From contig DAOUMC010000018.1 of NCBI GenBank assembly GCA_034413595.1, positions 57,079-121,078 on the forward strand: a stretch of 64,000 nt of DNA, written 5' to 3'. This DNA comes from Dehalococcoidales bacterium (lineage in GTDB: Bacteria; Chloroflexota; Dehalococcoidia; Dehalococcoidales; JAUWZL01). Numbering within the stretch: position 1 is the stretch's first letter; each line of letters opens with the position of its first letter. Below, piece by piece: positions 1,610 to 57,047 of this stretch. Both the position numbers and the translations under genes were made by a program. Below the pieces are notes generated by a model. It searched no databases. It was not told where the DNA came from and was given only the letters and a program-made list of their open reading frames with translations.

Positions 1610-1614
1610 GTCTT

Positions 1615-1643
1615 TTGACATTACACCAGTAATAAGCTAAAAT
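1615..1643 (+). promoter_or_regulatory. Sigma70-like promoter for the Fur-family gene (TTGACA-17-TAAAAT)
   Basis: TTGACA at 1615-1620, a 17-nt spacer, and TAAAAT at 1638-1643, located 24 nt upstream of the ATG at 1667. Confidence 0.55.
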
Positions 1644-1645
1644 AG

Positions 1646-1657
1646 TAATAATTATTA
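1646..1657. promoter_or_regulatory. Perfect 12-bp AT palindrome TAATAATTATTA (Fur-box-like operator candidate)
   Basis: Perfect palindrome between the -10 box and the start codon, overlapping the predicted transcription start. It resembles the NATWAT hexamer arrays of Fur-family boxes. Confidence 0.45.
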
Positions 1658-1666
1658 TTAAGATAG

Positions 1667-2044: not shown

Positions 2045-2114
2045 AGACTTTAGCCCGCTCAGCTCCCAGATAATGGGCTGAGCTTAACAATCTTATTGGT
2101 ATTGGAGTAATAGA

Positions 2115-4082: not shown

Positions 4083-4111
4083 AAACTAAGTAAGATAGAA
4101 GGACTTTAGGA

Positions 4112-6316
4112 ATGTCAAAAATAATTGCCTCAGCAGCTATCAGGGGAGCCCACAGGATTGTGGGGCAGGCCGAAAAAAAGTGGCAGGAGGCCATGGACAG
4201 ATGGGGAGCTAAAGAGCCTGTTGGCTTCCCCAACAGCGCCTATTACCTGCCCATAATCTACGGGATTCTGGGCGTCAAAGTGGAAAAGCTGGGAGACATG
4301 GAGCAGGTGCTCGGACGGTGTAAATCACTGCTGCCACCACCGGTCAAGGAGACACATCCACTGCCCTATCTGGCACCGGCCCTTGACGCCGGCATGGCCA
4401 CCTTTTTCGCCGAGGAAATCATTGAGGCCATACGCTACCTTGAGAAACCCGACTTCTACACCAAAACAGAAGACCCGATGGATGGCAACATCTGGCTGGG
4501 GGCCGCCGATGACGTCATACTGAGGAAGAGGGGCATTGAGTTTGTGGATGGCACCGCCCCGGGCTTTGCCGCCATCCTTGGTGCCGCTCCCACCAATGAG
4601 ATAGCGGCCAGAATCGCCCAGGAACTGCAGCAGAAGAACCTCTATATCTTTATGTGCGCCGAGAATGATGGCAAAAGGTTCTCGGAGCAGCTGGTTGAGG
4701 CCGGAGTACAGATTGGCTGGCCCACCCGCCTGGTTTCCTTCGGCCCTGATGTCTCCGCCGCCGTGTTTGCCATGGGTTTTGCCAACCGGGTGGCCATGTC
4801 CTTCGGTGGTGTTGAACCCGGTGATTATCGAAAAATCCTAATCTACAACAAAGACCGAACCTTCGCCTTTGCCATGCCTCTGGGCTATGTCACAGACGAG
4901 TGGTACGCCAATGCCGCCGGAGCCATCAACTGGGGGTTCCCCACCATCGCTGATACCCCCATACCCGAGGTCTTGCCCAGCGGTATCTGCACCTACGAGC
5001 ACGTCGTCTCCAATGTGCCGCACGACAGAATAGTGTCCCGGGCGATAGAGGTGAGAGGACTCAAGGTCGCCGTCGCCGAGGTGCCGGTGCCAGTGGCCTA
5101 CGGCCCGGCCTTTGAAGGCGAGAGAGTGCGCGGCGAGGAAATATACCTTGAGTGCGGCGGTGGCAGAAGCCAGATGGTGGAGTGGGTCACCTCAAAGCGC
5201 ATGGATGAGGTGGAAGACGGCAAGATTGAGGTCATCGGGCCGGAGATAACCGACGTCCCCGCCGGCTCCAAGCTGCCCCTGGCTATAGCCGTGGAGGTCG
5301 CCGGCAGAGGAATGCAGGAGGACTACGAGCCCATCCTGGAGAGGCAAATCCACCACCTGATAAACTATGCTCAAGGGGTAATGCACATCGGCCAGAGGGA
5401 TATCGCCTGGCTAAGAGTCAGCAAATCGGCGGTGGAAAAGGGTTTCCATCTCCACCACATCGGCACCATCCTCCATGCCAAATTGCACCAGGACTTCGGC
5501 CGCATCTTTGACAAGCTTCAGGTAAAACTATACACCGAAGAAGACAAGGTAAAAGAGACTGTGGATAAAGCCAAAAAGGTATATGCCACCCGGGATACCC
5601 GCATTGAGGGTATGACCGACGAAACCACCAGCATATACTATTCCTGCACCCTGTGCCAGTCCTTTGCTCCGAGCCATGTCTGCGTCATCAGCCCGGAGAG
5701 AACCGGGCTCTGCGGCTCCTACAACTGGATGGACTGCAAGGCGGCCTACGAAATCAACCCCACCGGGCCTAACGTGCCGGTAGAAAAAGGTGAAACCATA
5801 GACGCCAAGCTGGGGCAGTGGAAAGGGGTGAACGAGTTTGTCTTCAAGGCTTCCCGGGGCAAGATAGACCATTACAACTTTTACAGCATCATAAATGACC
5901 CGATGACCACCTGCGGTTGCTGCGAGTGTATCGCCGCCATCCTGCCATTGTGCAACGGGGTAATGACGGTAAACCGGGAATACATGGGCATGACCCCCTG
6001 TGGGATGAAGTTCACCACGCTGGCCGGGACTATCGGTGGTGGCATCAGCACCCCGGGCTTTGTAGGTCACGGCAAGTATAACATCACCCAGAGGAAGTTC
6101 CTCAGTGCCGAAAACGGTATCAAGCGCCTGGTCTGGATGCCTAAAATGCTGAAGGAGGAGATTGCCCCTCGCTTTAACGCCCGGGCCAGAGAAATCGGTA
6201 TTCCCAATCTCCTGGACATGGTCGCCGATGAGACAGTGGGCGTCACCGAAGAAGAAATCCTACCCTTCCTTCAAGAAAAAGGGCACCCGGCGCTGAGTCT
6301 GGAACCATTGATGTAG
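4112..6316 (+). CDS. acsB: Acetyl-CoA synthase alpha subunit (AcsB)
   Basis: 734 aa. It carries the A-cluster Cys-Gly-Cys context (TTCGCCECI) and lies next to cooS and acsC. Confidence 0.95.
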   Translation: MSKIIASAAIRGAHRIVGQAEKKWQEAMDRWGAKEPVGFPNSAYYLPIIYGILGVKVEKLGDMEQVLGRCKSLLPPPVKETHPLPYLAPALDAGMATFFAEEIIEAIRYLEKPDFYTKTEDPMDGNIWLGAADDVILRKRGIEFVDGTAPGFAAILGAAPTNEIAARIAQELQQKNLYIFMCAENDGKRFSEQLVEAGVQIGWPTRLVSFGPDVSAAVFAMGFANRVAMSFGGVEPGDYRKILIYNKDRTFAFAMPLGYVTDEWYANAAGAINWGFPTIADTPIPEVLPSGICTYEHVVSNVPHDRIVSRAIEVRGLKVAVAEVPVPVAYGPAFEGERVRGEEIYLECGGGRSQMVEWVTSKRMDEVEDGKIEVIGPEITDVPAGSKLPLAIAVEVAGRGMQEDYEPILERQIHHLINYAQGVMHIGQRDIAWLRVSKSAVEKGFHLHHIGTILHAKLHQDFGRIFDKLQVKLYTEEDKVKETVDKAKKVYATRDTRIEGMTDETTSIYYSCTLCQSFAPSHVCVISPERTGLCGSYNWMDCKAAYEINPTGPNVPVEKGETIDAKLGQWKGVNEFVFKASRGKIDHYNFYSIINDPMTTCGCCECIAAILPLCNGVMTVNREYMGMTPCGMKFTTLAGTIGGGISTPGFVGHGKYNITQRKFLSAENGIKRLVWMPKMLKEEIAPRFNARAREIGIPNLLDMVADETVGVTEEEILPFLQEKGHPALSLEPLM

Positions 6317-6329
6317 AAAGGAGTATATA

Positions 6330-7676
6330 GTGCCGCTTACCGGAATAGAGATATTCAAGCTACTGCCCAAGACCAACTGTGGCCAGTGCGGAGTGCCTAC
6401 CTGCCTGGCTTTCGCCATGAGTCTGGCGGCGGGCAAGGCCGAGCTTGCTGCCTGCCCCTACGTCTCTGAGGAGTCCAAGGCCAAGCTGGAGGAAGCATCA
6501 GCCCCGCCTATCAGACCAGTTACTATCGGAGTCGGTGACCGGGCACTGAAAGTGGGTGGTGAGACGGTCATGTTCCGCCACGAAAAGAGGTTTGAAAATC
6601 CTCCCGGCTTTGCCATCCTTGTCAGCGATAGTATGGCTGAAACCGAGGTTGACAGTCGCCTTGACAGGTTTAATAAGCTCCAGTATGAGCGGGTGGGGCT
6701 CACCCTTCGCCCGGAACTGGTAGCCTTAAGGTGCGACTCGCAGGATGCCTCAAAGTTTGGGGCTCTGGTGACCAAAGTAAAACAGAGCAGCGACGCCAGC
6801 ATCATCCTGATGAACCAAAACCCCGAAGTCCTGGCCGCCGGGCTGGCCGTCTGCGCCGATAGAAGACCGCTACTTTACGCCGCCACCAGGGACAATCTGG
6901 AACAGGTAGCGGCACTGGCCAGGGCCAACTCCTGCCCGGTTGTTGCCCAAGCCGATAATCTAGATGAGCTCACCGAACTCACTTCCAGGCTAACCCAGTC
7001 CGGTATCAAGGACATTGTCATTGACTCCGGGGCCAGGACTCTGCGCCGGGCGTTCGAAGACCAAGTTGTAACAAGGAGGGCCGCCCTGCTCAAGAAGTTC
7101 CGCCCCCTGGGCTATCCCACCATAATTTTGGCCAACGAGATGACCGATGACCCGATGAAAGAGGCACTAATGGCGGCTATCTTTGTGGCTAAATACGGCG
7201 GAATCATCGTCCTGTCTGATTTTCAAGGAGAGAGCCTGTTCCCACTGTTGGTGCTCAGGATGAACATCTTCACCGACCCGCAGCGGCCGCTGGCCACTAC
7301 CGAGGGCATCTATGAGATTGGCAGCCCCGATGAAAACTCTCCGGTAATGGTCACTTCCAACTTTTCCCTGACCTACTTCATCGTCTCTGGCGAGGTGGAG
7401 AACAGTCGGGTTTCCAGCTACCTGCTGGTCAAGGACACCGAGGGGCTTTCGGTCATGACCGCCTGGGCCGCCGGCAAGTTCGGCGCCGACACCATCGCCC
7501 CCTTCGTCAAAAAGAGCGGCATTAGCGACAGGATTAAACACCTTAAACTGATAATCCCGGGCTATATCGCCATCGAAAGCGGCGGCCTGGAAGAAGAGCT
7601 GCCCGGCTGGGAGATTCTGGTCGGCCCCAGAGAGGGGGCTCATATCCCGGCCTATCTTAAGACACTGAAATCCTAA
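6330..7676 (+). CDS. acsC: Corrinoid iron-sulfur protein large subunit (AcsC/CdhE-like)
   Basis: 448 aa with a GTG start. The N-terminal 4Fe-4S motif is CGQCGVPTCLAFAMSLAAGKAELAACP. Confidence 0.92.
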   Translation: MPLTGIEIFKLLPKTNCGQCGVPTCLAFAMSLAAGKAELAACPYVSEESKAKLEEASAPPIRPVTIGVGDRALKVGGETVMFRHEKRFENPPGFAILVSDSMAETEVDSRLDRFNKLQYERVGLTLRPELVALRCDSQDASKFGALVTKVKQSSDASIILMNQNPEVLAAGLAVCADRRPLLYAATRDNLEQVAALARANSCPVVAQADNLDELTELTSRLTQSGIKDIVIDSGARTLRRAFEDQVVTRRAALLKKFRPLGYPTIILANEMTDDPMKEALMAAIFVAKYGGIIVLSDFQGESLFPLLVLRMNIFTDPQRPLATTEGIYEIGSPDENSPVMVTSNFSLTYFIVSGEVENSRVSSYLLVKDTEGLSVMTAWAAGKFGADTIAPFVKKSGISDRIKHLKLIIPGYIAIESGGLEEELPGWEILVGPREGAHIPAYLKTLKS

Positions 7677-7687
7677 GGAGAGGGCTT

Positions 7688-8566
7688 ATGATACTTATCG
7701 GGGAAAACATAAACGTAATGTCAAAGACCATTGGTCCGGCGCTCCGGGAGAGAAGCCCGGAGCCAATAAGGGCACTGGCTAAGGCAGAAGCCAGTGCCGG
7801 CGTTGACTATCTTGACCTTAACATCGGTCCGGCCAGAAAAGCCGGCGGCGAGCTGATGTCCTGGCTGGTCAACACCGTGCAGGAGGTCACCGGTAAGCAC
7901 TTGTCCCTGGATACGACAAACTCGGAGGCTACTGAAGCCGGACTGAAAGCCTGCAAGAGAAGGGCATTAATTAATTCCATCTCGCTTCAGCCCGAGAGGC
8001 TGGAGAGGGTGTTGCCTATGGTCAAAGAGTATAAGGCCGATTTTATCGCTCTCCTCTGGGGAGTGGAGGGCATGCCCCGGGACGCCAATGAAAGATGTAT
8101 GCACGCCGTTGACCTGGTCTATAAGGCCAACCAGCTGGGCATATCCAACGAAGACATCTGGATTGACCCTATCGTCACCCCAGTCAGCGTTGAAATCAAT
8201 CAGGTGAAAGCCTGCCTTGAGTTTATGAGCATGCTGACTGAAGTCGCACCGGGATGCAAGTCTATCGTGGGACTCTCCAACGTCTCAAATGGAACACCGG
8301 CACAGCTAAGACCCTACCTCAACCGGACATATCTGGCCATGCTGATGAAGTACAGGCTCCATTCCGCCATAGTCGATGCCTTTGACACCGAGCTGATTAG
8401 AATGGCCCGGGGCGAAATGCCGGAGATAGTCAACCTGGTGCACCGGCTGATGGACGGTGAAAAGCCCGACCCTGCCTCTTTAGGTCAGAAGGAAACGGAA
8501 TACCTTAAAACATTCCGTGTCCTTAATGGCGATGCACTCTACTCACACTCCTGGCTTGAAATATAG
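7688..8566 (+). CDS. acsE: Methyltetrahydrofolate:corrinoid/iron-sulfur protein methyltransferase (AcsE, pterin-binding)
   Basis: 292 aa. The sequence (LIGENIN ... DYLDLNIGPA ... LSNVSNG) matches the pterin-binding MeTr fold. Confidence 0.88.
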   Translation: MILIGENINVMSKTIGPALRERSPEPIRALAKAEASAGVDYLDLNIGPARKAGGELMSWLVNTVQEVTGKHLSLDTTNSEATEAGLKACKRRALINSISLQPERLERVLPMVKEYKADFIALLWGVEGMPRDANERCMHAVDLVYKANQLGISNEDIWIDPIVTPVSVEINQVKACLEFMSMLTEVAPGCKSIVGLSNVSNGTPAQLRPYLNRTYLAMLMKYRLHSAIVDAFDTELIRMARGEMPEIVNLVHRLMDGEKPDPASLGQKETEYLKTFRVLNGDALYSHSWLEI

Positions 8567-8577
8567 CCCGCCCGCCT

Positions 8578-9234
8578 ATGGAAAGAAGAATAACCCGCCC
8601 CGAACAGAAAAGCTACCAGTACGGGTATGAGCTGGCTCTTAAAATGGCCAGCCAGAAGCTGACTGATATTGCTGATTTACCGGAGCAGTGCCGAAGGGCT
8701 GGAGCTCGGCTGGAGCTGGTCGGTGGTAAAAAGCTCATCAGCCTAAAATATCTAAATCAAACCTATAAAATTACTCTGCCTGAAATAGATGTTTTGTTTG
8801 TTGATAGCCAGCAGCCGGTGCCGCCAAGAGATAAGCTACTGATACTCCATTATCTCACCCAGGCCCAGGGTAGCCCCATCAGCACTAAAAAGATAACCTA
8901 CAAGGAACTGCCGGAGGGAACCAGCTATTTCCCCACATTCTACAAGAGGGCTATAAAACCTCTTGTGGATAACTTTGGCAAAGAGCCTCATCGACTGCTT
9001 GATGCTGGTGCCAGACTGGGCGGTCACAGGGCGGACTATGGTGATGTGGCCGTAACCATTAACGCCTTCACTAAGGTGCCGCTGACCCTGGTTCTGTGGC
9101 AGGGTGATGATGAACTTACCCCCGAGGGCAGCGTCCTCTTTGATAGCAGCATCTCTGACTACCTTACCACCGAAGATATAACCGTGCTCTGCGAGACCGT
9201 GGCCTGGAGACTGGTCAGGATATTCAGGGGATAA
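8578..9234 (+). CDS. DUF3786-like protein, last gene of the ACS cluster
   Basis: 218 aa. The motif run LILHYLTQAQGSP...YKELPEGTSYFPTFYKRAI resembles DUF3786 as I remember it. Function unknown. Confidence 0.6.
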   Translation: MERRITRPEQKSYQYGYELALKMASQKLTDIADLPEQCRRAGARLELVGGKKLISLKYLNQTYKITLPEIDVLFVDSQQPVPPRDKLLILHYLTQAQGSPISTKKITYKELPEGTSYFPTFYKRAIKPLVDNFGKEPHRLLDAGARLGGHRADYGDVAVTINAFTKVPLTLVLWQGDDELTPEGSVLFDSSISDYLTTEDITVLCETVAWRLVRIFRG

Positions 9235-9268
9235 TTCCACGAGTACCAATTGTGGTCATTACAGGAGC

Positions 9269-11053
9269 CTACTCAACGGTCACGCTCTTAGCCAAATTCC
9301 TGGGAAAATCTATCGGGCAGCCCCTTTCCTGGGCGGCGTAGTACGCCAGTAGCTGCAACGCCACAGTATTGACCACCGGCGAAAATATGGCATCAACCCT
9401 GGGCAGGGCGATGACAAAATCAGCTACCTCGCTGATTGTCCCGTTTCCTTCTTCAACCAAGGCTATTACCGGTGCTCCCCTGGCCTTAATCTCCCTTACA
9501 CTGTTCACCATAGCCTCATAGGTGCTGTCCTTAGCCAGAATAGTAACTACCGGGGTATCCTTATCTAAAAGAGCAAAAGGGCCGTGCTTAAGCTCCCCGG
9601 CGGCATAACCTTCGGCGTGGATGTAGGCGATCTCTTTTAGCTTCAGGGCCCCCTCCAGAGCGATGGGATAGTTTAAGCCCCGGCCGATAAAGAAGGCACT
9701 TTCATGCCAAGACAGATACTGGCCATACTTCTTAATAACAAATTCATTATCCAGCACCTGCTGAATCTTGCTCGGCAGCTGCCTGATACTCAGGAGCATA
9801 TCAGCCAGTCTCTTGACATCGGCCTTGGAGTAAGACATCACCAGCCAGTAAAGGGCAATAAGCTGAGCGGTAAAGCTCTTGGTGGAGGCCACGCTTATCT
9901 CGGGGCCAGCCTGGGTGTAGATGGTCTGGTCCGCAAGCCGGCTGATGGTGCTACTAGCGACGTTAGTAATGGCTAAAACATGGCAGCCGGCTTCCTGTAA
10001 CCTTCTGGTAGCTCTGATTGTGTCTGCGGTCTCACCGGACTGGGTTATGATGATAGCCATGGTCTTGGCCAGCGCCTGGGGATAGTAATTAAACTCAGAA
10101 GCCAGCTCAGCCCTGACCGGAATCCTGAGAAGCTCCTCAAAAATATATTTGGCCACCAGACCGGCGTGATACGAAGTGCCACAGGCCAGCACCAGTACGG
10201 CCTCAATTCCGGCATCTCTTATACGTGCCAGGTCGGCTATCGGCTCCGTCCTCTGGCAATAAGCGACCAGGGTATCCCGCACCACCCGGGGTTGCTCATG
10301 AATCTCCTTGAGCATGAAATGGGAGTAGCCTCCCCTCTGCGCCTCGGCAACAGACCAGTTTATCTTATGCTCTTTTCCACTGACCCAGCTACCATTTCTC
10401 TTAATCTTTACACCGGAATCGGCTAAAACACCTATGTCACCCTCTTCCAGATATACCACCCGGTTGGTGTAGTCCAGTATCGCCGGTATGTCTGAGGCAG
10501 CGAAAGTCTCGTTGTCGCCGACACCGATTATCAGGGGGCTATCCCTTCTGGCAACCACCAGTTTTGGCTCACCCGCCCTAAGCGCCACAATGGCATAAGA
10601 GCCCGCTATGTCACCCAGGGCAGCCGCCACTGCCGTCTCCAGACTGCCATTGTAGTATCTCTCAATCAGATGAGGAATCACCTCGGTATCCGTATCGGAA
10701 GTAAAGTGGTGCCCTTCAGCGGTTAGCCTGAGCTTCAATTCCTGGAAATTGCTTATTACTCCGTTGTGCACCACGGCGATGTCGCCGGTACAATCACAGT
10801 GCGGGTGGGCATTTGCCGCCGACGGCTCGCCGCAGGTCGCCCAGCGGGTATGGCCGATGCCTACCAGGCCATTAAACTGGGGTATTTTTCGGGTAAGTTC
10901 ACCCACCCGTGAGGTATCCTTATACATTTTTAGAGCACTATCGGACACGGCTATACCCCAGGAGTCATAGCCCCGGTACTCAAGGTGGACAAGACAATTA
11001 AGCAAAACCGATTGAGCCTGCCTATTCCCGATATAACCAACAATGCCGCACAT
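9269..11053 (-). CDS. glmS: Glutamine--fructose-6-phosphate aminotransferase (isomerizing)
   Basis: 594 aa. It has the N-terminal MCGIVGY nucleophile, two SIS domains and a C-terminal KSVTVE. Confidence 0.97.
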   Translation of the reverse strand: MCGIVGYIGNRQAQSVLLNCLVHLEYRGYDSWGIAVSDSALKMYKDTSRVGELTRKIPQFNGLVGIGHTRWATCGEPSAANAHPHCDCTGDIAVVHNGVISNFQELKLRLTAEGHHFTSDTDTEVIPHLIERYYNGSLETAVAAALGDIAGSYAIVALRAGEPKLVVARRDSPLIIGVGDNETFAASDIPAILDYTNRVVYLEEGDIGVLADSGVKIKRNGSWVSGKEHKINWSVAEAQRGGYSHFMLKEIHEQPRVVRDTLVAYCQRTEPIADLARIRDAGIEAVLVLACGTSYHAGLVAKYIFEELLRIPVRAELASEFNYYPQALAKTMAIIITQSGETADTIRATRRLQEAGCHVLAITNVASSTISRLADQTIYTQAGPEISVASTKSFTAQLIALYWLVMSYSKADVKRLADMLLSIRQLPSKIQQVLDNEFVIKKYGQYLSWHESAFFIGRGLNYPIALEGALKLKEIAYIHAEGYAAGELKHGPFALLDKDTPVVTILAKDSTYEAMVNSVREIKARGAPVIALVEEGNGTISEVADFVIALPRVDAIFSPVVNTVALQLLAYYAAQERGCPIDFPRNLAKSVTVE

Positions 11054-11055: not shown

Positions 11056-12249
11056 CTACATCACCAGGCTTCTATCTGGCAGCCAGCCACTGATTATCTT
11101 CAGCGCCTGAATCTGAGCATGGTTACCGACAATAACGCCGGGCAGGGCGACCACATTGCTGCCCAAGGTACAGCCCTCCCCCAGCATAGCCCCAACCTTG
11201 ACCGAGTGGTTTTGCTCAATCCTGACCTCTGTTTGACCGCTTGAGGCGTTAAAGTGCCCTCCTATACTGCATCCCTTATCAATAACCGAATCCTGGATAA
11301 TGGAGCCAGGGCCGATAGTGACATCACTGCCTATGACGCTGTTCTCTATCTCGGTGAACGGCGAGATAACCACATTGTCGCCGATGCTGGTCGCGGGCAG
11401 GATACAGGTATTAGGCCCTATCTCACAGCCGCGCCCGATGACCACCGGGCCAGAGATGTAAGAATTTGACTTTATAACCGTATTCTCTGCTACCGAGACT
11501 AACCCTTTTATTGACACACCGGCCTCAATGGTGCCGCCCAGCCCAGGCTGGATTCGGCGAAGAATGGCACCATTAAGGCTCAGTATATCCCAGGGATAGA
11601 CAACTTCAAGCCAGGTGGCGTCTGTTTCCAGAGCTCTGATTTTTCTTCCCTGGGCCAGCATTCCGGTGAGGGCGGCCGGGATGTTGGGCTCGCCTTCAAT
11701 AAAGTCGAAGACTTGCCGGCTAAAGGCGTAGATACCGGTATTGGCAAGATAGATGCCGGCCTCCCGGCTTGGCCCCGAAGCCCGCCTCTCTAGGCGCATC
11801 GCCTCCTTTACCAGGCCTCCATCAACAGACACTATGGCACTTCTCAATGGGTTCTCCACTCTTTTGACCAGCATCGCCTCGGGTTTGGCATCAGCAAACT
11901 GAGCAATGGTATCAGCGTCAATCAGCTTATCCCCGGGCAGAACCAGAAATCTACTGGTAACCATCGGCTTGGCCTGCAGGAGAGCATCGGCGGTGCCCAG
12001 CTGCTTGGCCTGGGTTGCATAGGCTATTTTAACACCCAGTTGCTCTCCGGAAGCCAAGTAGTCAAATATCTGCTCCTGTCGGTAGCCGGCCACAAGTACG
12101 ATTTCACGAATGCCGTTCTGCGCCAGTGATTCCACCACATACTGCAATATCGGTTTACCGGCTATGACCAGCATCGCCTTTGGCTTACTAACCGTAAACG
12201 GTCTCAGCCTCTTCCCCTCCCCGGCCGCCAGAACTACCGCTTGCTTCAT
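11056..12249 (-). CDS. Sugar-1-phosphate nucleotidyltransferase with C-terminal left-handed beta-helix (archaeal GlmU-like), paralog 2
   Basis: MKQAVVLAAGEGKRLRPFT (the NTP-transferase G-x-G-x-R motif) plus hexapeptide repeats at the C-terminus. ATG 12249 is preferred because SD GGAGG lies upstream; the track ORF starts at GTG 12261. Confidence 0.85.
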   Translation of the reverse strand: MKQAVVLAAGEGKRLRPFTVSKPKAMLVIAGKPILQYVVESLAQNGIREIVLVAGYRQEQIFDYLASGEQLGVKIAYATQAKQLGTADALLQAKPMVTSRFLVLPGDKLIDADTIAQFADAKPEAMLVKRVENPLRSAIVSVDGGLVKEAMRLERRASGPSREAGIYLANTGIYAFSRQVFDFIEGEPNIPAALTGMLAQGRKIRALETDATWLEVVYPWDILSLNGAILRRIQPGLGGTIEAGVSIKGLVSVAENTVIKSNSYISGPVVIGRGCEIGPNTCILPATSIGDNVVISPFTEIENSVIGSDVTIGPGSIIQDSVIDKGCSIGGHFNASSGQTEVRIEQNHSVKVGAMLGEGCTLGSNVVALPGVIVGNHAQIQALKIISGWLPDRSLVM

Positions 12250-12261
12250 AGCCCCCTCCAC

Positions 12262-13467
12262 CTAAAAAATCCTTGCCCCGGGTGAAATAACTCCGCTAGC
12301 CACAGCGCCTGGCCCAATGACGGCATCATTGCCAATAACGCTGCCGACGTTAATACTAGCATTAATCCCGGTTTCAACTCCATCCCCAATTATAGCTCCC
12401 AGCTTGCGTCGTCTGCTATCCGCGCCAGCGACACTCACCTCTTTTTTATCCAGCCTTAAATTGGCAATCTTGGTGCCTGAGCCAAGGTTGCAGCCCTCAC
12501 CGACAACACTGTCACCGATGTAATTATGGTGCGGAATTTTACTACCTTTCATTATTATTGAACCCTTTATCTCAACCGCAGCACCAATACGGCAGCCATC
12601 ACCGATAGAGGTATAAGGGCGGATGTAACAGTTGGGGCCGATGTCACAGCCCCGTCCAATAATCACCGGGCCCACGATATAGCTACCAGCCTTCACCGTA
12701 GTACCCTCACCAATGCTGACCGCCCCTCTGATAACCGCATCGTCTTCTATCTCCCCCTGATTTTGTGGCTCAAGTGCGGCGAGGAGAGCCTCGTTGGCCA
12801 CCAGCAACTCCCAGGGGTAGTTCAGAGCAAGCCAATAACCAATCTCCCGACAGGCAACACGATGCCCTTTGTCCAGCATAAGCTGCAGGGAATGGGTTAT
12901 CTCATACTCCCCACGCGGTGATTTCGGCGTCCGGGCTATGGCATCAAATATAGCCGGTGTAAAAAGATAAAGGCCGGTATTGGCGATATGCGAGGGTGGC
13001 CGAGCCACCTTTTCATAGATATGTGTTATATAACCATCCCTCGCCTTAACCACTCCCAGACCCTCAACATCACCAACCTCCTTAACACCAATGGCAATCT
13101 CTCTATCGTCAGCCAGACGGGCGATATCCTCCCTGTTGGCGACAACGTCGCCATTCATTACCAGGAAGAGGTCGCTATCCACCAAAGCCCTGACCCTTCT
13201 AACAGCATCAGCCGTCCCCAGCCGTCTCCTCTGGGTTACGTAGTCTATTTTTAATCCCCATCTGTCCCCATTGCCAAAGTAGTCGCGCACCTGCTCATCG
13301 TGGTAGCCAACAACAAAGATGAATTCAGAAATGCCCGCCCCCGAGGCCTCAATTAGCAGGTGCTCCAGGATAGGCCTGTTGGCTATGGGCAGCATCACCT
13401 TAGGCCGGGTACAGGTCAGGGGGTGCATCCGTTCGCCCTCGCCGGCAGCAAGAACGACCGCTTTCAT
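12262..13467 (-). CDS. Sugar-1-phosphate nucleotidyltransferase with C-terminal left-handed beta-helix (archaeal GlmU-like), paralog 1
   Basis: MKAVVLAAGEGERMHPLT plus hexapeptide repeats. It has the same architecture and length as its downstream neighbour. Confidence 0.85.
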   Translation of the reverse strand: MKAVVLAAGEGERMHPLTCTRPKVMLPIANRPILEHLLIEASGAGISEFIFVVGYHDEQVRDYFGNGDRWGLKIDYVTQRRRLGTADAVRRVRALVDSDLFLVMNGDVVANREDIARLADDREIAIGVKEVGDVEGLGVVKARDGYITHIYEKVARPPSHIANTGLYLFTPAIFDAIARTPKSPRGEYEITHSLQLMLDKGHRVACREIGYWLALNYPWELLVANEALLAALEPQNQGEIEDDAVIRGAVSIGEGTTVKAGSYIVGPVIIGRGCDIGPNCYIRPYTSIGDGCRIGAAVEIKGSIIMKGSKIPHHNYIGDSVVGEGCNLGSGTKIANLRLDKKEVSVAGADSRRRKLGAIIGDGVETGINASINVGSVIGNDAVIGPGAVASGVISPGARIF

Positions 13468-13471: not shown

Positions 13472-14764
13472 CTAGCTCTCCTCCGCAGAACCCTGTATTA
13501 TCCTTATAGCACTATCGTATAGATGGTACGCCAGTGCCTCACTTTTGGCCTCAGCAGTAACCCTTATCCTGGGCTCAGTGCCTGAAGCACGGATAAGAAG
13601 CCAGCCCTCTTCAAAAACAAGTCTGGCACCATCTATTCTGCTTACCGAAAGCGGTTTCATAGCCGCCACCAGTTTTTCCTCCAGAGACGACATTACCACC
13701 CCATTGCGGCTGACACTACCCCGTAGCAGGGGATAGCCAGACGTGGCCTCTACCAAACGAGACAGCTTTTGCCTGCTGGCGATAGATATCACCAGAGCTG
13801 CCGCATAAATGCCGTCAGGGCACAGCGAGCTCCCAGGGAAAACCCAGCTTCCTGACGGCTCGCCACCAAAATCACCGCTCTTTTTGAGCTCCTGTGAGAC
13901 ATGGTTGTCACCGACGCCGGTCCGGATGACGCTAAAGCCGGCTTCATCCACCGCCATGGAGGCATCTACGGTGGTCACCACCTCTCTGGCACCCAGTTCA
14001 CAGGCCAAGAGCACCAACAGCTTATCTCCGGTAACAAAATAGCCCCGGTCATCAATCACCATCATTCGGTCTCCATCCCCGTCGTGGGCAATGCCCAGAG
14101 CGGCGCCGGACTCGCGGACTACCTTGATAAGCCCCGCTAAACTGGCCTCAGTGGGCTCGGCAGCCCTCGGGAAAAAGCCGCTGGAGTGGCAGTTAAGGGC
14201 TAACACCTCACAGCCCATCCTTCTTAACAGCTCAGGAGTAACCAGTGAGGCAGCACCACAGCCGCAGTCAAGTACCACCTTGAGCCTGAATTTCCCGGGA
14301 AAGTCAGCCAGTATGTGTTCAATATGCTTCTCAATGGCATCAAGGTACACATCAGGCGACTGAAACCTGTCCCACGAGGTAACAGAAAGGGAGTCACTTG
14401 AAATCATCTCCTCTATCTGCCTCTGCTGGTGCCAATCAAAGGCAGAGCCATCCGGGTTCAGTAGCTTGAGGCCATTATATTCCGGAGGGTTATGAGAAGC
14501 GGTAACCATCACTCCACAGTCAAACTCTCTTGCCGCCAGAGCCAGCGCTGGCGTGGGCAAAACTCCGGCGTCATAGCTCCTGGCGCCAGCCGCCAGCAAC
14601 CCGGAAGTGACCGCCTGTTTCAGGGCGTTTGAGGAGGTTCTGGTATCACAGCCAACAATCACACCGGTGTTTTGTCTCCCTATCGCCAGTCCGGCCTTTA
14701 GTGTCGTCTGAAGTAGCCAACTGTCCACAACAGCCCTGATACCAGATGTGCCAAACAACCCCAT
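13472..14764 (-). CDS. Phosphohexomutase (phosphoglucosamine/phosphomannomutase, archaeal-like)
   Basis: The active-site loop is TASHNPPEYNG and the N-terminus is MGLFGTSGIR. The start is set at ATG 14764; the track begins at TTG 14794. Confidence 0.85.
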   Translation of the reverse strand: MGLFGTSGIRAVVDSWLLQTTLKAGLAIGRQNTGVIVGCDTRTSSNALKQAVTSGLLAAGARSYDAGVLPTPALALAAREFDCGVMVTASHNPPEYNGLKLLNPDGSAFDWHQQRQIEEMISSDSLSVTSWDRFQSPDVYLDAIEKHIEHILADFPGKFRLKVVLDCGCGAASLVTPELLRRMGCEVLALNCHSSGFFPRAAEPTEASLAGLIKVVRESGAALGIAHDGDGDRMMVIDDRGYFVTGDKLLVLLACELGAREVVTTVDASMAVDEAGFSVIRTGVGDNHVSQELKKSGDFGGEPSGSWVFPGSSLCPDGIYAAALVISIASRQKLSRLVEATSGYPLLRGSVSRNGVVMSSLEEKLVAAMKPLSVSRIDGARLVFEEGWLLIRASGTEPRIRVTAEAKSEALAYHLYDSAIRIIQGSAEES

Positions 14765-45025: not shown

Positions 45026-45862
45026 ATGAATGAGCCAGAGACCAACATCCCCAGGCAGATAAGCAAGTGGGCCTGCCACAAGCTGGAATGCTTTGGTGAC
45101 TTCGTTGAGGCTTATGCCAGAAACAACACCAAACGTTGCTACCTGGAGCTGTTTGCCGGTGGTGGCCAATACGCCTGCAAAGGCACTGACTGTGTGGTTG
45201 ATGGCCCGGAACTCAGAGCACTCAAGGCCAGGTTTTCAAGATGCATCTTTGTGGCAAAAAAGCCACCAGACGCTGAAAGCCTAAAAAGACTTTCGGCACC
45301 GCTTAACACTAACGATAGTGTTAAGATAGTGATAGGTAACTGCGTCCGGGAAAAGGTCTTTCGCCAAGCTCTTGACCTTATCCCCCGCTCGGCAGCCAGT
45401 CTTGCCTTAATTGACCCGCCAGGCTACAGCCGGCTGCGCTGGTCAACGATAAGAAAGCTGGCCAGCCACAGCCGGGACTGGAAGGGACACAAGATAGACC
45501 TGCTGGTAATCTTCCCGCTGGAAATGGCTCTACTAAAAAATCTGACCCGCCCGGACTGCGAGGCCTCCATCGACCGGCTCTACGGCAACCAGAAGTGGCA
45601 GCAGGTCAGACAGAAGAGGCTGGATGATAAAATAGGATGGGACGAAGCCAGCAAAAAGCTGATAACTTTGTTCAAAGCCGGGCTAAAGGGTCTGGGCTAC
45701 AGACATGTTGAGGACTTAAAGCCGGCCCGCTTCTCCAACCCGCTCTACTACCACATCATCTGGGCGAGCGACACCAGAAGCCAGCTAAAGGAGCTTAGCG
45801 AAATCTGGGGCAAAGAAAGATACCTGCCCTGCGAGCTGTTTCACAATGAGAAAAAAGGTTAG
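45026..45862 (+). CDS. TcmP-like / gamma-class SAM-methyltransferase-fold protein of unknown target
   Basis: 278 aa. ELFAGGG (motif I-like) is followed about 88 aa later by LIDPPGY (a DPPY-type motif IV). The N-terminal W..HK...F pattern resembles the three-Cys-motif partner protein family as I remember it. Confidence 0.5.
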   Translation: MNEPETNIPRQISKWACHKLECFGDFVEAYARNNTKRCYLELFAGGGQYACKGTDCVVDGPELRALKARFSRCIFVAKKPPDAESLKRLSAPLNTNDSVKIVIGNCVREKVFRQALDLIPRSAASLALIDPPGYSRLRWSTIRKLASHSRDWKGHKIDLLVIFPLEMALLKNLTRPDCEASIDRLYGNQKWQQVRQKRLDDKIGWDEASKKLITLFKAGLKGLGYRHVEDLKPARFSNPLYYHIIWASDTRSQLKELSEIWGKERYLPCELFHNEKKG

Positions 45863-47940: not shown

Positions 47941-47970
47941 TTGACATCAGCCAAAAGGTATAGTTAAAAT
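47941..47970 (+). promoter_or_regulatory. Promoter of the CetZ-like gene (TTGACA-18-TAAAAT)
   Basis: TTGACA at 47941-47946 and TAAAAT at 47965-47970. A short hairpin (CACAC/GTGTG) and SD GGGAGG follow. Confidence 0.55.
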
Positions 47971-48007
47971 AACACACCAGTGATTGTGTGCCGTAAGGGA
48001 GGTAGAC

Positions 48008-49180
48008 ATGAAATTAGTGGTAATTGGTTTCGGCCAGTGTGGCAGCCGGATTGCTGATGAGTTTGCCCGGCTGGATAGAAGAGCACGGGGGCACCGGGGG
48101 ATTGAGATAACCCCGGGGGTATTTGCCGTCAACACCGATGCCGCCGACCTGACCGGGCTGGCCACCATAAAATCTGATTACCAGCACCGGATTCTTATCG
48201 GCGGGCGGAAGACCGGCGGGCATGGTGTGGGCAAGATAAACGAGCTGGGCGCCGAGGTAGCCAGAGAAGACGCTGACAAGGTGGTTGATGCCCTAAGGGC
48301 AACCAAGCGTTTCTATGAAACCGACGCCTTCCTGCTGATTGCCGGCGCCGCCGGTGGCACCGGCTCAGGCTCAATACCGATAATGGCACAGCACATCAAG
48401 GAGCGTTACACCGACAAACCGGTATATGCTCTGGTCATCCTGCCCTTTGAACACGAAGAGGAGAACGAAGAACGGACGGTATACAACACAGCGGTATGCC
48501 TCAAGTCCGTCTCCTCGATAGCTGATGCGGTGATACTCATTGATAATCAAAGGTATGTCAGAAAGGATTTCTCACTAAAAAACAATCTGGCCAAGATTAA
48601 CGCCTTGATAGTCGAGCCCTTCTACGACCTGCTCTGCGCCGGGGAAGAGAAAAAGGCCAAGTATGTCGGTGCCAAGACGGTTGATGCCGGGGATATAATA
48701 CAGACACTGCTGGGCTGGACGGTAATCGGCTACGGCCAATCACAACTGAGACGGCTCAAGCTGCCTATGGCCAGCAAGAGTTTCAGGGAAAAAAGCACCG
48801 AGACCCACAAGGGAATCCAGTCCATGGATGAGGCCATCAGCGAGCTGTCAACCAGATGTAACCCCAAGGATGCCGGCCGGGCTATATACCTAATCTCGGC
48901 GCCAGCCCGGGAGATAAACATGGACCTAGTCAAAGAACTCGGTGACTGGCTGAAAGACCTGGCGCCCAACGCCATCATAAGAAACGGGGACTATCCCAGG
49001 GAAAGGGGCGTCATGGACGTCACCCTTATCCTGTCCGAGCTCAGCGACGTGGAAAAGGTCAGGCAATACTATAATGAGTCCACCAGTCTGGTGCCGATAA
49101 TCAAAGAAAGGCAAAAAGAGGTCAAGGCCAAGCTCCTCACCATTGAGGAGGCAGCCAAAGACATACCCACGGTGTTCTAA
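48008..49180 (+). CDS. Tubulin/FtsZ-superfamily GTPase, CetZ-like
   Basis: ATG 48008 follows SD AAGGGAGG. The sequence shows MKLVVIGFGQCG, AVNTD, the tubulin signature AGAAGGTGSGS and a C-terminal RNGDYP. It lacks the canonical FtsZ GGGTGTG. Confidence 0.8.
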   Translation: MKLVVIGFGQCGSRIADEFARLDRRARGHRGIEITPGVFAVNTDAADLTGLATIKSDYQHRILIGGRKTGGHGVGKINELGAEVAREDADKVVDALRATKRFYETDAFLLIAGAAGGTGSGSIPIMAQHIKERYTDKPVYALVILPFEHEEENEERTVYNTAVCLKSVSSIADAVILIDNQRYVRKDFSLKNNLAKINALIVEPFYDLLCAGEEKKAKYVGAKTVDAGDIIQTLLGWTVIGYGQSQLRRLKLPMASKSFREKSTETHKGIQSMDEAISELSTRCNPKDAGRAIYLISAPAREINMDLVKELGDWLKDLAPNAIIRNGDYPRERGVMDVTLILSELSDVEKVRQYYNESTSLVPIIKERQKEVKAKLLTIEEAAKDIPTVF

Positions 49181-49210
49181 ATAGTTAAGATTTTTGTTTC
49201 GTAAAATTGC

Positions 49211-49246
49211 AAAAAAGTCCTCCTCCTTTTAGAGGAGGACTTTTTT
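49211..49246 (+). terminator. Intrinsic (bidirectional-looking) terminator after the CetZ-like gene
   Basis: AAAAAA-GTCCTCCTC-cttta-GAGGAGGAC-TTTTTT; the stem is 9 bp. Confidence 0.85.
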
Positions 49247-49325
49247 GGCTAAACCCGAAGGTGCCCTCTGCTGGCAACGACAAAATAAAAAACAATCAAA
49301 CTAAACCAGAACCAATCCAAGCTCT

Positions 49326-49364: not shown

Positions 49365-50924
49365 ATGGCTTCCCAGGTCTTTTACCGCAAGTGGCGTCCC
49401 CAGACTCTGGCTGAGGTAGTGGGGCAGGAGCACGTAACCCGAACGCTGCTCAATGCCCTGACCAGCGACCGCGTCTCACACGCCTATCTCTTTTGCGGCC
49501 CCAGGGGCACCGGCAAGACCAGCACCGGCCGTATACTGGCCAAGGCGGTAAACTGCGTCAGCCCGGTAAACGGAGAACCCTGCAACACCTGTTCTATGTG
49601 CCAGGCAATCACCGAGGGCCGGGCGCTGGATGTTATTGAGATTGACGCCGCTTCAAACACCGGCGTTGAAGACATCCGCACCCTGAGGGAGAGGGCCGGC
49701 TACGCTCCGAGCCAGGCACATCGCAAGGTCTATATCATTGATGAAGTCCATATGCTCTCAAACAGCGCTTCCAATGCCCTGCTCAAGACCCTTGAAGAGC
49801 CACCACCAAGCGTTATCTTTATCCTGGCGACTACCGAAATCCATAAAGTCCTGCCCACCATCATGTCACGCTGCCAGCGCTTTGATTTTCGAAGGCTTAC
49901 CCAGAAGGACATTTCAACCAAGCTAGAGCTTATCTGTAACACAGAAGGCATCAAGATAGAGCCCGAAGCTCTTAGACTTATCGCCCGGAGCGCCGCCGGC
50001 AGCCTGCGGGATGCCGAAAACCTGCTGGAACAGCTCTTTACCTACTACGGCTCAGAAATAGGGCTACCACAGGTTCAGGCTATCCTGGGCATCACCGGCG
50101 ATGCGCGAGCCAGGGAGTTGGCCAGGCAGATTATAGATAGCGATGTTGCCGCCGGTATGAAAACTATAAATGCCATAAGCAGTGACGGGCTTGACCTCAG
50201 GCAGTTCAACCGGGAACTGGTGGCCCATCTCAGGGCTCTGCTGCTGATAAAGAACGGCTGTGAAAAAGACCTGGACCTCACCCCTGAAGAGACGGCTGAG
50301 CTAAAAGACCTGGCACAAAGTGCCTCTCTGGAGCAGATCTTAAAGGCGGTCAAGCTCTTCGGCCAACTGGAGCTCGGCTTTGACAGCTGCTCCACCCTGC
50401 CCCTGGAGCTGGCGCTGGTAGACTGCAGTCTGGCACCAGAGATTGAAAAACCGGCAATTCAACCCAGGGCTGAGCCGGTCAAGCCAGCCAGAGTCAGTCC
50501 ACCAGTCTCACCACCCAGACCAGCAAGAAAGCCAGAACCGGCCGCCGTCACTCCACCGGTAGAATCAGCCGCTATCGCACCGCCAGAGCCGGGCAGCGAA
50601 CTGGAGCAGCTAATATCAAACTGGAGACAGGTCATTGAACAGGCTCCGGAAAGAACCAAAAGGACGCCGGCCATCGCCATCCTGAGGAGCGCCGGGGTCA
50701 AACCGATAGCCTTTGAGGATAACACCGTCGTCCTATCCTTCAGATATCCTTACCACAAGGAGAAGATAGAAGAGATAGAAAACAGAAAACTGGTTGCCGA
50801 GGTCATAAGCAGCTTCATCGGGCATCCCTGCCAGGTGCGCTGCATTTATGAGCCCGAAGCCAATCACCTGGTGCGGGAGGCACAGAGAATCGGCGGTCAA
50901 ATAGTTGACGTGGAGGAAAAATGA
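49365..50924 (+). CDS. dnaX: DNA polymerase III subunit gamma/tau
   Basis: Contains FYRKWRPQTLAEVVGQEH, Walker A GPRGTGKTS, and Zn-module cysteines. The start is set at the second ATG because of the promoter geometry; the track ORF starts at 49359. Confidence 0.93.
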   Translation: MASQVFYRKWRPQTLAEVVGQEHVTRTLLNALTSDRVSHAYLFCGPRGTGKTSTGRILAKAVNCVSPVNGEPCNTCSMCQAITEGRALDVIEIDAASNTGVEDIRTLRERAGYAPSQAHRKVYIIDEVHMLSNSASNALLKTLEEPPPSVIFILATTEIHKVLPTIMSRCQRFDFRRLTQKDISTKLELICNTEGIKIEPEALRLIARSAAGSLRDAENLLEQLFTYYGSEIGLPQVQAILGITGDARARELARQIIDSDVAAGMKTINAISSDGLDLRQFNRELVAHLRALLLIKNGCEKDLDLTPEETAELKDLAQSASLEQILKAVKLFGQLELGFDSCSTLPLELALVDCSLAPEIEKPAIQPRAEPVKPARVSPPVSPPRPARKPEPAAVTPPVESAAIAPPEPGSELEQLISNWRQVIEQAPERTKRTPAIAILRSAGVKPIAFEDNTVVLSFRYPYHKEKIEEIENRKLVAEVISSFIGHPCQVRCIYEPEANHLVREAQRIGGQIVDVEEK

Positions 50925-51229
50925 ACCTTTCTATGGTAAAACAGGCCCTGGAGCTCAAGTCCAAGCTGGAGAAGGCCCAGAAGGAGCTGGCCAAAATGAC
51001 CGTGGAGGCGGAGTCGGGCAAGGGTGCCGTCAGGGTCACCGCCAGCGGTAAGCAAGAAATCCTGTCCATCACCATATCACCTGAGGTTATAAACCCGGCC
51101 AAGAAAGAGCAGCTGGAGAAACTGGTACTCAAGGGCGTAACCGATGCCCTGGATAAGTCCAAGAAGCTGGCCGAGAAGCACCTGGGCCAGATGACTGGGG
51201 GCATCAAGATTCCCGGAATAACCGCCTAG
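50921..51229 (+). CDS. ybaB: Nucleoid-associated protein YbaB/EbfC
   Basis: 102 aa, overlapping dnaX by ATGA. It sits in the conserved dnaX-ybaB-recR order. Confidence 0.9.
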   Translation: MNLSMVKQALELKSKLEKAQKELAKMTVEAESGKGAVRVTASGKQEILSITISPEVINPAKKEQLEKLVLKGVTDALDKSKKLAEKHLGQMTGGIKIPGITA

Positions 51230-56222: not shown

Positions 56223-57047
56223 ATGACCAAGAACAACAGAACCGGCCTGCCAAGCCAGACCAGTCATGATAAGATGACAGACTTACTCCGGCTTAACCAG
56301 GAAATCGCCTACAAGGGGAAGATAGGCTGGCTGCGAGAGCAATACTGTCTGGAGCAGATAAGGTATATGAAGGTCTGTCACCAGAAAATCGGCCAGGACC
56401 AGATTGAACACGCCCGGGCCCGTGGTGGGGTCATCTCCTGTGGCAAGGGCTGCTCCTGCTGCTGTTACTTATATATCGGGGCCAACCTGCAGGAATGTGA
56501 GGCCATCGCCTATTACCTCTACCACCATAAGCCGCTGTTAGATAGCTTCATTGAGAAATACCCTGGCTGGCGGGAAGCGGTAAGGCAGGGTGGTGACCAG
56601 TTCCGTAATTGCGAGCAACTTTTCACCAAGATGCTGCTATCCGGCACAGACAAACAAAGAGAGCAAACCTTTGAGGCAGCATTGAGGCGCCACAATAAAC
56701 AGAATATCGCCTGCCCCTTCCTGGAAAATGACCTGTGTCTGATTTATGAAACTCGCCCCTGCAACTGTGCCGGCCTCTTCATCACCACTTCGCCTGAGCA
56801 GTGCCAGCCCCAGAACAACGAAGACCCGAGGTTCAACATCACCACCATTGACGACGTGGTGTCTGATACTTCCTTCTACTACAGAAGCCTGAGCCACCCC
56901 ATCCACCTGTATATGCCGGTAGCGGTCTACCGGATTCTGGAAGAGGGCTTCTCTTATCTGGCCCAATTCCCCGGCCTTGAGGGGCTGGAGTCCGAGGCTA
57001 TGAGTGACCCCGAAGTCAAAGCCATCATCCAGTCCCTAGAGGTTTAA
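56223..57047 (+). CDS. YkgJ/UPF0153-like CxxCxxCC cysteine-cluster protein
   Basis: Contains CGKGCSCCC and CPFLENDLCLIYETRPCNCAG, the pattern of the putative Zn/Fe-chelating CxxCxxCC domain. Confidence 0.65.
   Translation: MTKNNRTGLPSQTSHDKMTDLLRLNQEIAYKGKIGWLREQYCLEQIRYMKVCHQKIGQDQIEHARARGGVISCGKGCSCCCYLYIGANLQECEAIAYYLYHHKPLLDSFIEKYPGWREAVRQGGDQFRNCEQLFTKMLLSGTDKQREQTFEAALRRHNKQNIACPFLENDLCLIYETRPCNCAGLFITTSPEQCQPQNNEDPRFNITTIDDVVSDTSFYYRSLSHPIHLYMPVAVYRILEEGFSYLAQFPGLEGLESEAMSDPEVKAIIQSLEV

Follow-up and report, generated by a model that had tools for sequence, protein, structure and literature searches.

A conserved CetZ-like protein of the tubulin/FtsZ superfamily on the chromosome of Dehalococcoidales bacteria

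Positions 48008 to 49180 on the forward strand of a 64-kb stretch of DNA from a Dehalococcoidales bacterium (contig DAOUMC010000018.1 of assembly GCA_034413595.1, hereafter the window) encode a GTPase of the tubulin/FtsZ superfamily, 390 amino acids long and followed by a stop codon at 49178-49180. With near certainty this protein is CetZ-like, and not FtsZ, TubZ or tubulin. Recent papers still call CetZ an archaea-specific family (among them Brown & Duggin 2023, PMC9856176), and the survey that defined the family queried archaeal proteomes only; the host of the gene described here is a bacterium, as are the hosts of 70 related loci. Although databases and one paper already take note of the bacterial branch, no study has been made of it. 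On balance, we favor the explanation that the gene encodes a functional, vertically inherited CetZ-like protein which is additional to FtsZ and FtsA and forms a cytoskeleton organizing the envelope or cell shape outside of division. Within this explanation the identity of the protein is nearly certain, while its role is roughly an even call.

The protein was compared with profile models, with solved structures and with individual family members. The Pfam Tubulin model (PF00091) is matched with 116 bits against a cut-off of 33 bits (E = 2.8e-33), and the CetZ_C model (PF21011) with 62.1 bits against a cut-off of 21.6 bits (E = 5.9e-17), the latter alignment running over residues 189-355 of the protein and positions 3-175 of the 180 in the profile. 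The same Pfam scan returned no FtsZ_C and no Tubulin_C match, Tubulin_2 (PF13809) stayed below threshold (18.9 bits versus 27), and the FtsZ equivalog model of NCBIfam, TIGR00065, reached 73.4 bits where 295.2 are required. In a phmmer search of PDB sequences, the best match is Haloferax CetZ1 (4b46, 2.4e-46), aligned over residues 1-379 and thus at full length, followed by CetZ2 (4b45, 2.9e-31, also at full length) and Methanosaeta CetZ (3zid, 1.7e-14), all of them ahead of every FtsZ. The FtsZs in the PDB match the amino-terminal domain only, at about 1e-12 to 1e-6, and tubulins score approximately 1e-6 (about 31 bits). Pairwise comparison gave 27-30 bits against a genuine Dehalococcoidales FtsZ and that of Bacillus subtilis, versus 112-156 bits (31-35% identity) against archaeal CetZs. 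We also examined 22 alignment columns that separate the archaeal CetZ consensus from FtsZ, a test that is our own proxy for the published CetZ-specific residues around the nucleotide pocket; the protein carries the CetZ-type residue in 17 columns, the FtsZ-type residue in one, and neither in four.

An AlphaFold2 model of the protein (mean predicted local distance difference test score 88.3) points the same way, as the predicted two-domain tubulin fold is most like those of CetZ1 and CetZ2. A Foldseek search with this model placed CetZ1 first (E = 2e-32, template modeling (TM) score 0.93, root-mean-square deviation 1.9 Å), then CetZ2 (TM 0.92), with about 50 FtsZ chains following at E-values near 1e-23. 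The initial annotation of the window had proposed a CetZ-like protein from the sequence letters and had suggested a comparison with CetZ crystal structures; these are indeed the nearest structures to the model, and the profile and PDB searches bear the identification out. CetZ2 (PDB 4B45) and Methanosaeta thermophila CetZ (PDB 3ZID; TM 0.78) rank second and third among the solved relatives, differing from CetZ1 in their lower identity to the protein and sharing no DIPxLL tail with it; the M-loop of CetZ2 is also short.

Conservation of motifs was assessed over 86 copies of the bacterial clade described below, in which 62 residues never vary, among them those of GGTGSG, of the T7 sequence DAGD and of GDYP. 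The T1 nucleotide-binding loop, GFGQCG (residues 7-12; 48026..48043), aligns with GFGQAG of CetZ1 and GVGGGG of FtsZ, and its residues G7, G9, Q10, C11 and G12 are the same in every copy. The T4 signature AGGTGSG (residues 115-121; 48350..48370), which fits the superfamily pattern [SAG]GGTG[SA]G and the tubulin signature as known from gamma-tubulin, has an invariant GGTGSG portion with Ser120 as in CetZ and tubulin, where FtsZ has Thr; Ala115 occupies the position of CetZ1 G108. The T7 loop and start of helix H8, VDAGDIIQTL (residues 225-234; 48680..48709), retains both acidic residues, with D226, A227, G228 and D229 invariant, and with Asp229 paired in the alignment with E218 of CetZ1 and the second Asp in the LDFAD motif of FtsZ. 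The equivalent of the long CetZ1 M-loop, LRRLKLPMASKSFREK (residues 247-262; 48746..48793), consists of a variable hydrophobic or basic tip and a near-invariant F-R-x-K, in which F259, R260 and K262 are 93-99% conserved; it also contains residues 250-254, the only low-confidence stretch of the AlphaFold2 model. Further downstream, GDYP (residues 327-330; 48986..48997) is common to archaeal CetZs (GGDYP in CetZ1, GGDFP in CetZ2) and absent from FtsZ.

The protein ends in a short peptide, DIPTVF-COOH (residues 385-390; 49160..49177), which follows a long predicted helix (residues 349-383). A pattern [DNEAS][ILV]Px[LVI][LFI] occurs within the last ten residues of all 86 copies, and the stricter DIP[ST][LV][LFI] in 68 of them. 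This peptide corresponds to the CetZ1 tail LESLF, and many archaeal CetZ representatives end in D-I-[DE]-S-L-[LF]. The bacterial tail is nearer to the carboxy-terminal peptide of FtsZ, which is DIPTFL in B. subtilis and includes SIPSFM in a Dehalococcoidales FtsZ. Several of these positions have been mutated in CetZ1: G108S is inactive, E218A is GTPase-defective, the hydrophobic tip of the M-loop is essential, and a change of the tail from LESLF to AESGG abolishes rod development (bioRxiv 10.1101/2024.04.08.588506). The tail and the M-loop, both needed for CetZ1 function, thus have counterparts in the bacterial clade. All of the motifs picked out initially (GFGQCG, AVNTD, AGAAGGTGSGS, RNGDYP and LILSEL) are present, the nucleotide-binding loops and the T7 acidic residue are intact as a GTPase would need, and the two CetZ1 parallels that had been drawn initially, MKLAMIGFGQAGGK and GGDYP, both occur in the CetZ1 chain of PDB 4b46.

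The likeness to Haloferax volcanii CetZ1 (HVO_2204; PDB 4B46) is extensive, with full-length homology at about 33% identity, the same predicted fold, an amino terminus of the form MKLxxIGFGQxG, the motifs GGTGSG, GHGVG and GDYP, the CetZ_C domain, an acidic residue at the T7 catalytic position, an M-loop region that is likewise long and a short hydrophobic tail after a long helix. The two proteins differ in host, in the T7 residue (Asp, as in FtsZ, rather than Glu), in the Ala at the G108 position, in the basic lateral patch R276/K277/R282, and in the tail (DIPxLL rather than LESLF); the bacterial clade also has its own insertions, two residues within SDYQH and five after PFEHEE, and carries a CAGEE motif. 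With bacterial FtsZ the protein shares the superfamily fold and GTPase loops, the T7 Asp, a PF after strand S5 (ILPF versus RPF) and the resemblance of its tail to the peptide core (D/S)IPxF(L/M), but it has GGTGSG in place of GGTGTG, and neither a dcw nor an ftsA context in the window. Its likeness to TubZ/PhuZ, BtubA/B and tubulin is limited to the superfamily GTPase domain and the signature Ser, whereas the Tubulin_2 and Tubulin_C results and the surroundings of the gene set it apart from them.

All 64 kb of the window clearly belong to a bacterial core chromosome. They include glmS, rpoB/rpoC, the NAD-dependent ligase gene ligA, pth, eno, gap and a PCRF release factor gene, together with recO, lysS, serS and, directly downstream of the cetZ-like gene, dnaX-ybaB-recR in the classical bacterial arrangement. 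The ybaB-like member of this group, an open reading frame (ORF) of 102 amino acids between dnaX and recR, lies at 50921-51229. The gene and its neighbors have equal G+C content, and an identical protein is found in the same gene order in NCBI assembly GCA_964580355.1. A scan of one genome per GTDB species yielded 70 loci, all from metagenome-assembled genomes (MAGs) labeled Dehalococcoidia, Dehalococcoidales, Dehalococcoidaceae or 'Chloroflexota'; the scan used exact peptide words of the query and therefore reaches fairly close relatives only. In most of these loci the order eno...gap, cetZ-like, dnaX, recR, recO, lysS is kept. Ratios of nonsynonymous to synonymous substitution (dN/dS) against five orthologues are 0.04-0.07, with dS near saturation, and selection on the gene is strongly purifying. 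The initial placement of the gene in a bacterium, outside any ftsA, ftsQ or mur context, thus stands: the 64 kb contain no ftsZ, ftsA, ftsQ, sepF, mreB or mur gene.

The ORF as listed by the gene-finding program extends from an upstream TTG (47984..49180), whereas the real start is the ATG at 48008, from which the protein begins MKLVVIGFGQCG; an M/V-K-L sequence stands at this position in all 85 extracted homologous copies. The gene has a sigma-70-type promoter on the same strand (47941..47970), with a -35 box TTGACA at 47941-47946, an 18-nucleotide spacer and a -10 box TAAAAT at 47965-47970, matching the consensus at 11 of 12 positions in a consensus scan. About 20 orthologous loci repeat TTGACA-N17/18-TAAAAT, usually with a TGxGxT extension and at approximately the same distance from the start codon, in leaders that have diverged apart from this box. 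Its retention there shows that the box is no chance match, and gives phylogenetic support for a real promoter. The Shine-Dalgarno sequence AAGGGAGG, read from the sequence at 47995..48002, lies five nucleotides before the ATG, and GGAGG or GAGGT is kept at this site in orthologous leaders. Between the -10 box and the Shine-Dalgarno sequence, at 47971-47992, the leader contains an inverted repeat (AACACAC...GTGTGCC) that a scan flagged as terminator-like on the minus strand; this hairpin is not kept in orthologous leaders.

Downstream of the gene, at 49210..49247 (+), is a potentially bidirectional intrinsic terminator made up of A6, a 9-bp G+C stem (GUCCUCCUC/GAGGAGGAC), a 6-nucleotide loop and U6, the A6 and U6 runs lengthening the stem. 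Its folding energy is -25.9 kcal/mol (z = -7.25), and none of 200 shuffled sequences folds equally well. The promoter, strong Shine-Dalgarno sequence and 9-bp-stem terminator described initially are therefore all present. The further claim that the gene forms a monocistronic unit holds less firmly: it has its own promoter and terminator, but no terminator lies between the stop codon of gap (47924) and the -35 box, so that read-through from gap is possible. A monocistronic gene is likely, not proven.

With a limit of E <= 0.001, the query matched more than 7,000 clusters built at 90% identity, a number to be read as an upper bound, given that the 120 matches listed were the ones inspected. An all-against-library HMMER search found 1,920 cluster representatives at E <= 1e-3, 82 of them at E < 1e-30. 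Among the matches listed, the closest named homologues are from Dehalococcoidales MAGs, and all named homology matches are from Dehalococcoidia, Dehalogenimonas or Chloroflexota. To place the protein, we used a neighbor-joining tree of 84 full-length sequences, calculated from Kimura-type distances and rooted on two FtsZs, in which the deep branching order is not trustworthy and many tips carry no taxon label, as cluster look-ups named few representatives. In this tree the window protein, the other Dehalococcoidia copies and 24 cluster representatives fall into a single clade, of 36 representatives, with a bootstrap value of 96 and apart from the two FtsZ outgroups. The remaining representatives, which include CetZ1, CetZ2 and named proteins from Nitrososphaerales and Thermococci, are not a supported clade (8%). 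When the most divergent members of the bacterial clade were made into a profile, all names among its matches were of Chloroflexota or Dehalogenimonas. Archaeal CetZs, those of Thermococci included, match each other better (280 bits and 44% identity between CetZ1 and Thermococci) than they match the window protein, and the bacterial clade therefore looks like a sister or outlying branch. It is monophyletic and CetZ-like, lying on the boundary of CetZ as drawn from archaeal members or beyond it, and as far as named records show it is restricted to Dehalococcoidia.

Since the family is confined to one bacterial class and widely distributed in archaea, parsimony would favor a transfer of the cetZ-like gene from archaea to bacteria. 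The initial annotation had named horizontal sharing or an ancient origin as the two possibilities, and the tree lends support to no particular position of the clade relative to archaeal CetZ. As part of the whole explanation preferred here, we think it fairly probable that the gene is chromosomally fixed and vertically inherited within Dehalococcoidia, given its conserved synteny, matching G+C content and membership in one clade. PAB0075, a transfer from archaea to Dehalococcoides described by Gao & Gupta 2007, was considered as a possible cetZ-like gene and rejected, as it is a dehydratase. A divergent subfamily of 419-440 amino acids (P0291, P0149 and P0169 type), 28-30% identical to the window protein, is represented at positions 4288-5547 of locus L071; that contig carries TilS, a bacterial marker, and the gene is adjoined there by a transposase-associated gene and a 281-amino-acid ORF without Pfam matches.

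In one Dehalococcoidales MAG (locus L039, 359-4309), a cetZ-like gene at 359-1534 (+) lies tail-to-tail with canonical ftsA-ftsZ at 1930-4309 (-). The FtsZ encoded there is 53% identical to that of B. subtilis and has a carboxy-terminal peptide ...EELSIPSFMRQ..., while the adjacent CetZ-like protein ends in ...KDIPTLL. This is the only locus of the 70 in which ftsA-ftsZ adjoins the cetZ-like gene. The genes mraZ-mraW-ftsA-ftsZ have been reported in Dehalococcoides mccartyi and in every high-quality genome of Dehalococcoidales and SAR202 that was examined, a group in which the dcw/peptidoglycan genes are lost and the cell wall resembles an archaeal S-layer (PMC10608941). In D. mccartyi 195, ftsZ and ftsA (DET0343/0342) are accompanied by two more 'FtsZ' genes, DET0589 and DET0636 (PMC5102406). 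The initial annotation had asked whether a canonical ftsZ exists elsewhere, and both the L039 locus and the published genomes answer that in related genomes it does. Because ftsA-ftsZ coexists with the family in these genomes, the CetZ-like protein is an extra cytoskeletal protein beside FtsZ and FtsA, a statement that for the genome of the window extends from its relatives.

The gene was initially described as stand-alone. This is accurate for the window, which has neither a second cetZ-like copy nor the coiled-coil gene pair found elsewhere, but not for many relatives, which have one or two paralogues and conserved coiled-coil neighbors. Many loci of Dehalococcoidaceae type contain two copies in the order gap, cetZ-like', approximately 3 kb, cetZ-like, dnaX. 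In 25 of the 70 loci, a paralogue is adjoined by a pair of coiled-coil ORFs (about 175 and 600-775 amino acids) rich in Ala, Glu, Lys, Arg and Gln. The pair lies at 6925-7446 and 7506-9740 on the minus strand of locus L018, with the same arrangement in, for example, L016, L020, L021, L036, L040, L047 and L066. The longer ORF passes the Pfam Phasin_2 model at 55 bits, probably for compositional reasons. These coiled-coil proteins are candidate partners of the filament. One locus, L040, has three CetZ-like paralogues, at 3623-4801, 5027-6193 and 13528-14703, and also a 369-amino-acid coiled-coil ORF (11356-12465) and a 150-amino-acid ORF with an amino-terminal hydrophobic segment (12751-13203).

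As to mechanism, the protein would bind GTP and polymerize head-to-tail into dynamic protofilaments, with Asp229 of one subunit activating hydrolysis in the next. The flexible DIPxLL-type peptide at the carboxy terminus, and possibly the hydrophobic or basic tip of the M-loop, may bring the filament to the envelope or to a partner, for which FtsA is a candidate, as are the neighboring coiled-coil proteins where a genome has extra paralogues. The resulting polymer could serve as a scaffold, outside of division, that organizes the envelope or shape machinery of an S-layer bacterium without a peptidoglycan wall, parallel to the role of CetZ1 in Haloferax. A role in shape or envelope, such as the contribution to a disc or coccoid, wall-less morphology proposed initially, is suggested by this analogy and by one correlative proteomics report, in which the 'FtsZ/tubulin GTPase' btf_0551, the 'FtsZ' btf_0595 and a neighboring hypothetical protein of D. 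mccartyi BTF08 were less abundant or undetected in co-cultures whose cells changed from discs to barrel shapes (PMC8163811).

Several observations weigh against this explanation. The authors of the proteomics report ascribe the change in shape to reduced division (PMC8163811), and the orthology of the D. mccartyi proteins to the clade rests on literature annotations; a homology search seeded with a Dehalogenimonas MAG protein gave only metagenome and Chloroflexota names, and no cultured D. mccartyi. The first Gly of the T4 signature, G108 in CetZ1, is replaced by Ala. At the positions of the basic lateral-interface residues R276, K277 and R282 of CetZ1, the window protein has A, I and S, and bundling of filaments may therefore differ. 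The conserved neighbors are genes for glycolysis and for replication and repair, which are silent on envelope function. FtsZ itself is expected in this particular genome from its relatives, rather than seen in the window, and for the bacterial members as a whole we infer, rather than observe, polymerization, GTPase activity, localization and phenotype.

A possible, though unlikely, alternative is that the protein is a second division protein, co-assembling or cooperating with FtsZ at the division site and sharing its FtsA (or SepF) anchor through an FtsZ-like carboxy-terminal peptide. Such an arrangement would be similar to that of wall-less archaea, in which the assembly of the ring and its constriction require both FtsZ1 and FtsZ2, and a dependence on two FtsZ paralogues has been reported for archaea without a pseudopeptidoglycan wall (Brown & Duggin 2023, PMC9856176); the lineage considered here has lost peptidoglycan synthesis (PMC10608941). 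The authors of the D. mccartyi study group the proteins in question with cell division and found their abundance to fall with slower division (PMC8163811), and a transcript network ties DET0589 and DET0636 to growth-related genes (PMC5102406). The linkage of the cetZ-like gene to the replication genes dnaX-ybaB-recR, which is tight and wide, also fits this alternative, as does its tail-to-tail position with ftsA-ftsZ in L039, although that adjacency is seen in a single locus of the 70. The protein is CetZ-like, and not FtsZ1- or FtsZ2-like. CetZ1 and CetZ2 are reportedly dispensable for division in Haloferax, which we count against a division role. The DIP[ST]L[LF] tail does resemble the FtsZ peptide, as seen in the L039 FtsZ, and a tail motif is present in every copy of the clade; however, archaeal CetZs carry a related acidic-hydrophobic carboxy terminus (D-I-D/E-S-L-L/F, or LESLF in CetZ1), and the tail therefore need not mean binding to FtsA.

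The explanation that we prefer, an inherited cytoskeleton for envelope or shape, has a more far-reaching version, which we regard as doubtful. An ancestor of the wall-less Dehalococcoidia would have taken up an archaeal CetZ gene at about the time that peptidoglycan was lost and an S-layer adopted; the gene would then have duplicated and become a morphogenetic cytoskeleton with coiled-coil partners, replacing shape control based on the wall. If true, a cytoskeletal system would have passed from one domain to another in connection with an envelope transition, which would overturn the textbook line that CetZ is archaea-specific.

It is very improbable that the protein is the canonical FtsZ of the organism, as many NCBI and JGI records name its homologues. 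These source annotations and a weak match of the amino-terminal domain to the FtsZ model speak for it, but the reading is refuted by the shortfall against TIGR00065 (73 bits versus 295), by the presence of CetZ_C and absence of FtsZ_C, by pairwise scores far lower against true FtsZs than against archaeal CetZs, and by the true ftsA-ftsZ that coexists in L039 and in published Dehalococcoidales genomes. In most source annotations, members of the family go by the name 'cell division protein FtsZ' or else 'cell division GTPase FtsZ'. As the cut-off of the FtsZ equivalog is failed, these names are wrong, and they could mislead counts of ftsZ in Dehalococcoidia genomes.

A DNA-segregation GTPase of the TubZ/PhuZ type, belonging to a plasmid, prophage or other mobile element, is an even more remote prospect, with the sub-threshold Tubulin_2 match in its favor. 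The gene lies in a core-chromosome context that is syntenic across many species, with no G+C anomaly, and we saw no TubR, centromere repeats or integrase in its flanks. A search of 50,697 phage records gave no match, plasmid matches were haloarchaeal megaplasmid CetZ paralogues only (31-35% identity), IMG/VR gave one weak amino-terminal match (26%), and TubZ is absent from the top 60 PDB sequence matches. A mobile-element origin was rejected on the basis of the phage, plasmid and IMG/VR searches and the G+C content, and the absence of bacterial plasmid or phage homologues, together with the Tubulin_2 score, likewise separates the protein from TubZ. That an archaeal gene was joined to a bacterial contig during assembly or binning, for which the archaeal affinity of the protein and nothing else speaks, is next to impossible and is contradicted by recurring gene junctions, as dozens of independent assemblies (the closed MAG chromosomes CP070645, CP070842 and CP070729 among them) show the gene with the same bacterial genes on either side, the identical protein of GCA_964580355.1 has the same context, and the promoter, Shine-Dalgarno sequence and terminator are of bacterial type.

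The bacterial CetZ-like protein proposed in the initial annotation is thus real, although not as new as it was made to seem. One sentence of Santana-Molina et al. 2023 (PMC9871819) refers to CetZ-like proteins of Chloroflexota-Dehalococcoidia, the sole prior mention in the literature that we found, and the name 'tubulin-like protein CetZ' is already given to homologues in some records of JGI and NCBI. The proteins of that paper are almost certainly the same group, but unlike the 'sparse paraphyletic' groups described there, those found here are abundant, monophyletic in the neighbor-joining tree, multi-paralogous and syntenic. The present analysis adds the monophyly and abundance of the clade, its conserved synteny and promoter, the strong purifying selection, the coexistence with FtsZ and FtsA, the invariant tail peptide and the recurrent coiled-coil neighbors. 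Together these describe a large, strongly conserved and well-expressed-looking bacterial branch in a lineage with an archaea-like S-layer and no peptidoglycan wall, to which the bioremediation organisms Dehalococcoides and Dehalogenimonas belong. Should the protein organize the envelope or shape, it would explain the disc shape of a wall-less bacterium and provide a second, independent system for learning how CetZ filaments function. The invariant carboxy-terminal peptide and the coiled-coil neighbor genes offer concrete hypotheses of interaction. On the practical side, many records titled 'cell division protein FtsZ' are mis-named.

Elsewhere in the window, positions 659-9231 hold a carbon monoxide dehydrogenase/acetyl-CoA synthase (CODH/ACS; Wood-Ljungdahl) cluster, composed of CdhD-like, Prismane/CODH, ACS beta, CdhD/FeS, pterin-binding methyltransferase and DUF3786 genes. 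Two ORFs on the forward strand, at 45026-45862 (278 amino acids) and 56223-57047 (274 amino acids), belong to no Pfam family. The first of them is syntenic between eno and a gene of the HGD-D family in many related loci, and is therefore probably a real conserved gene.

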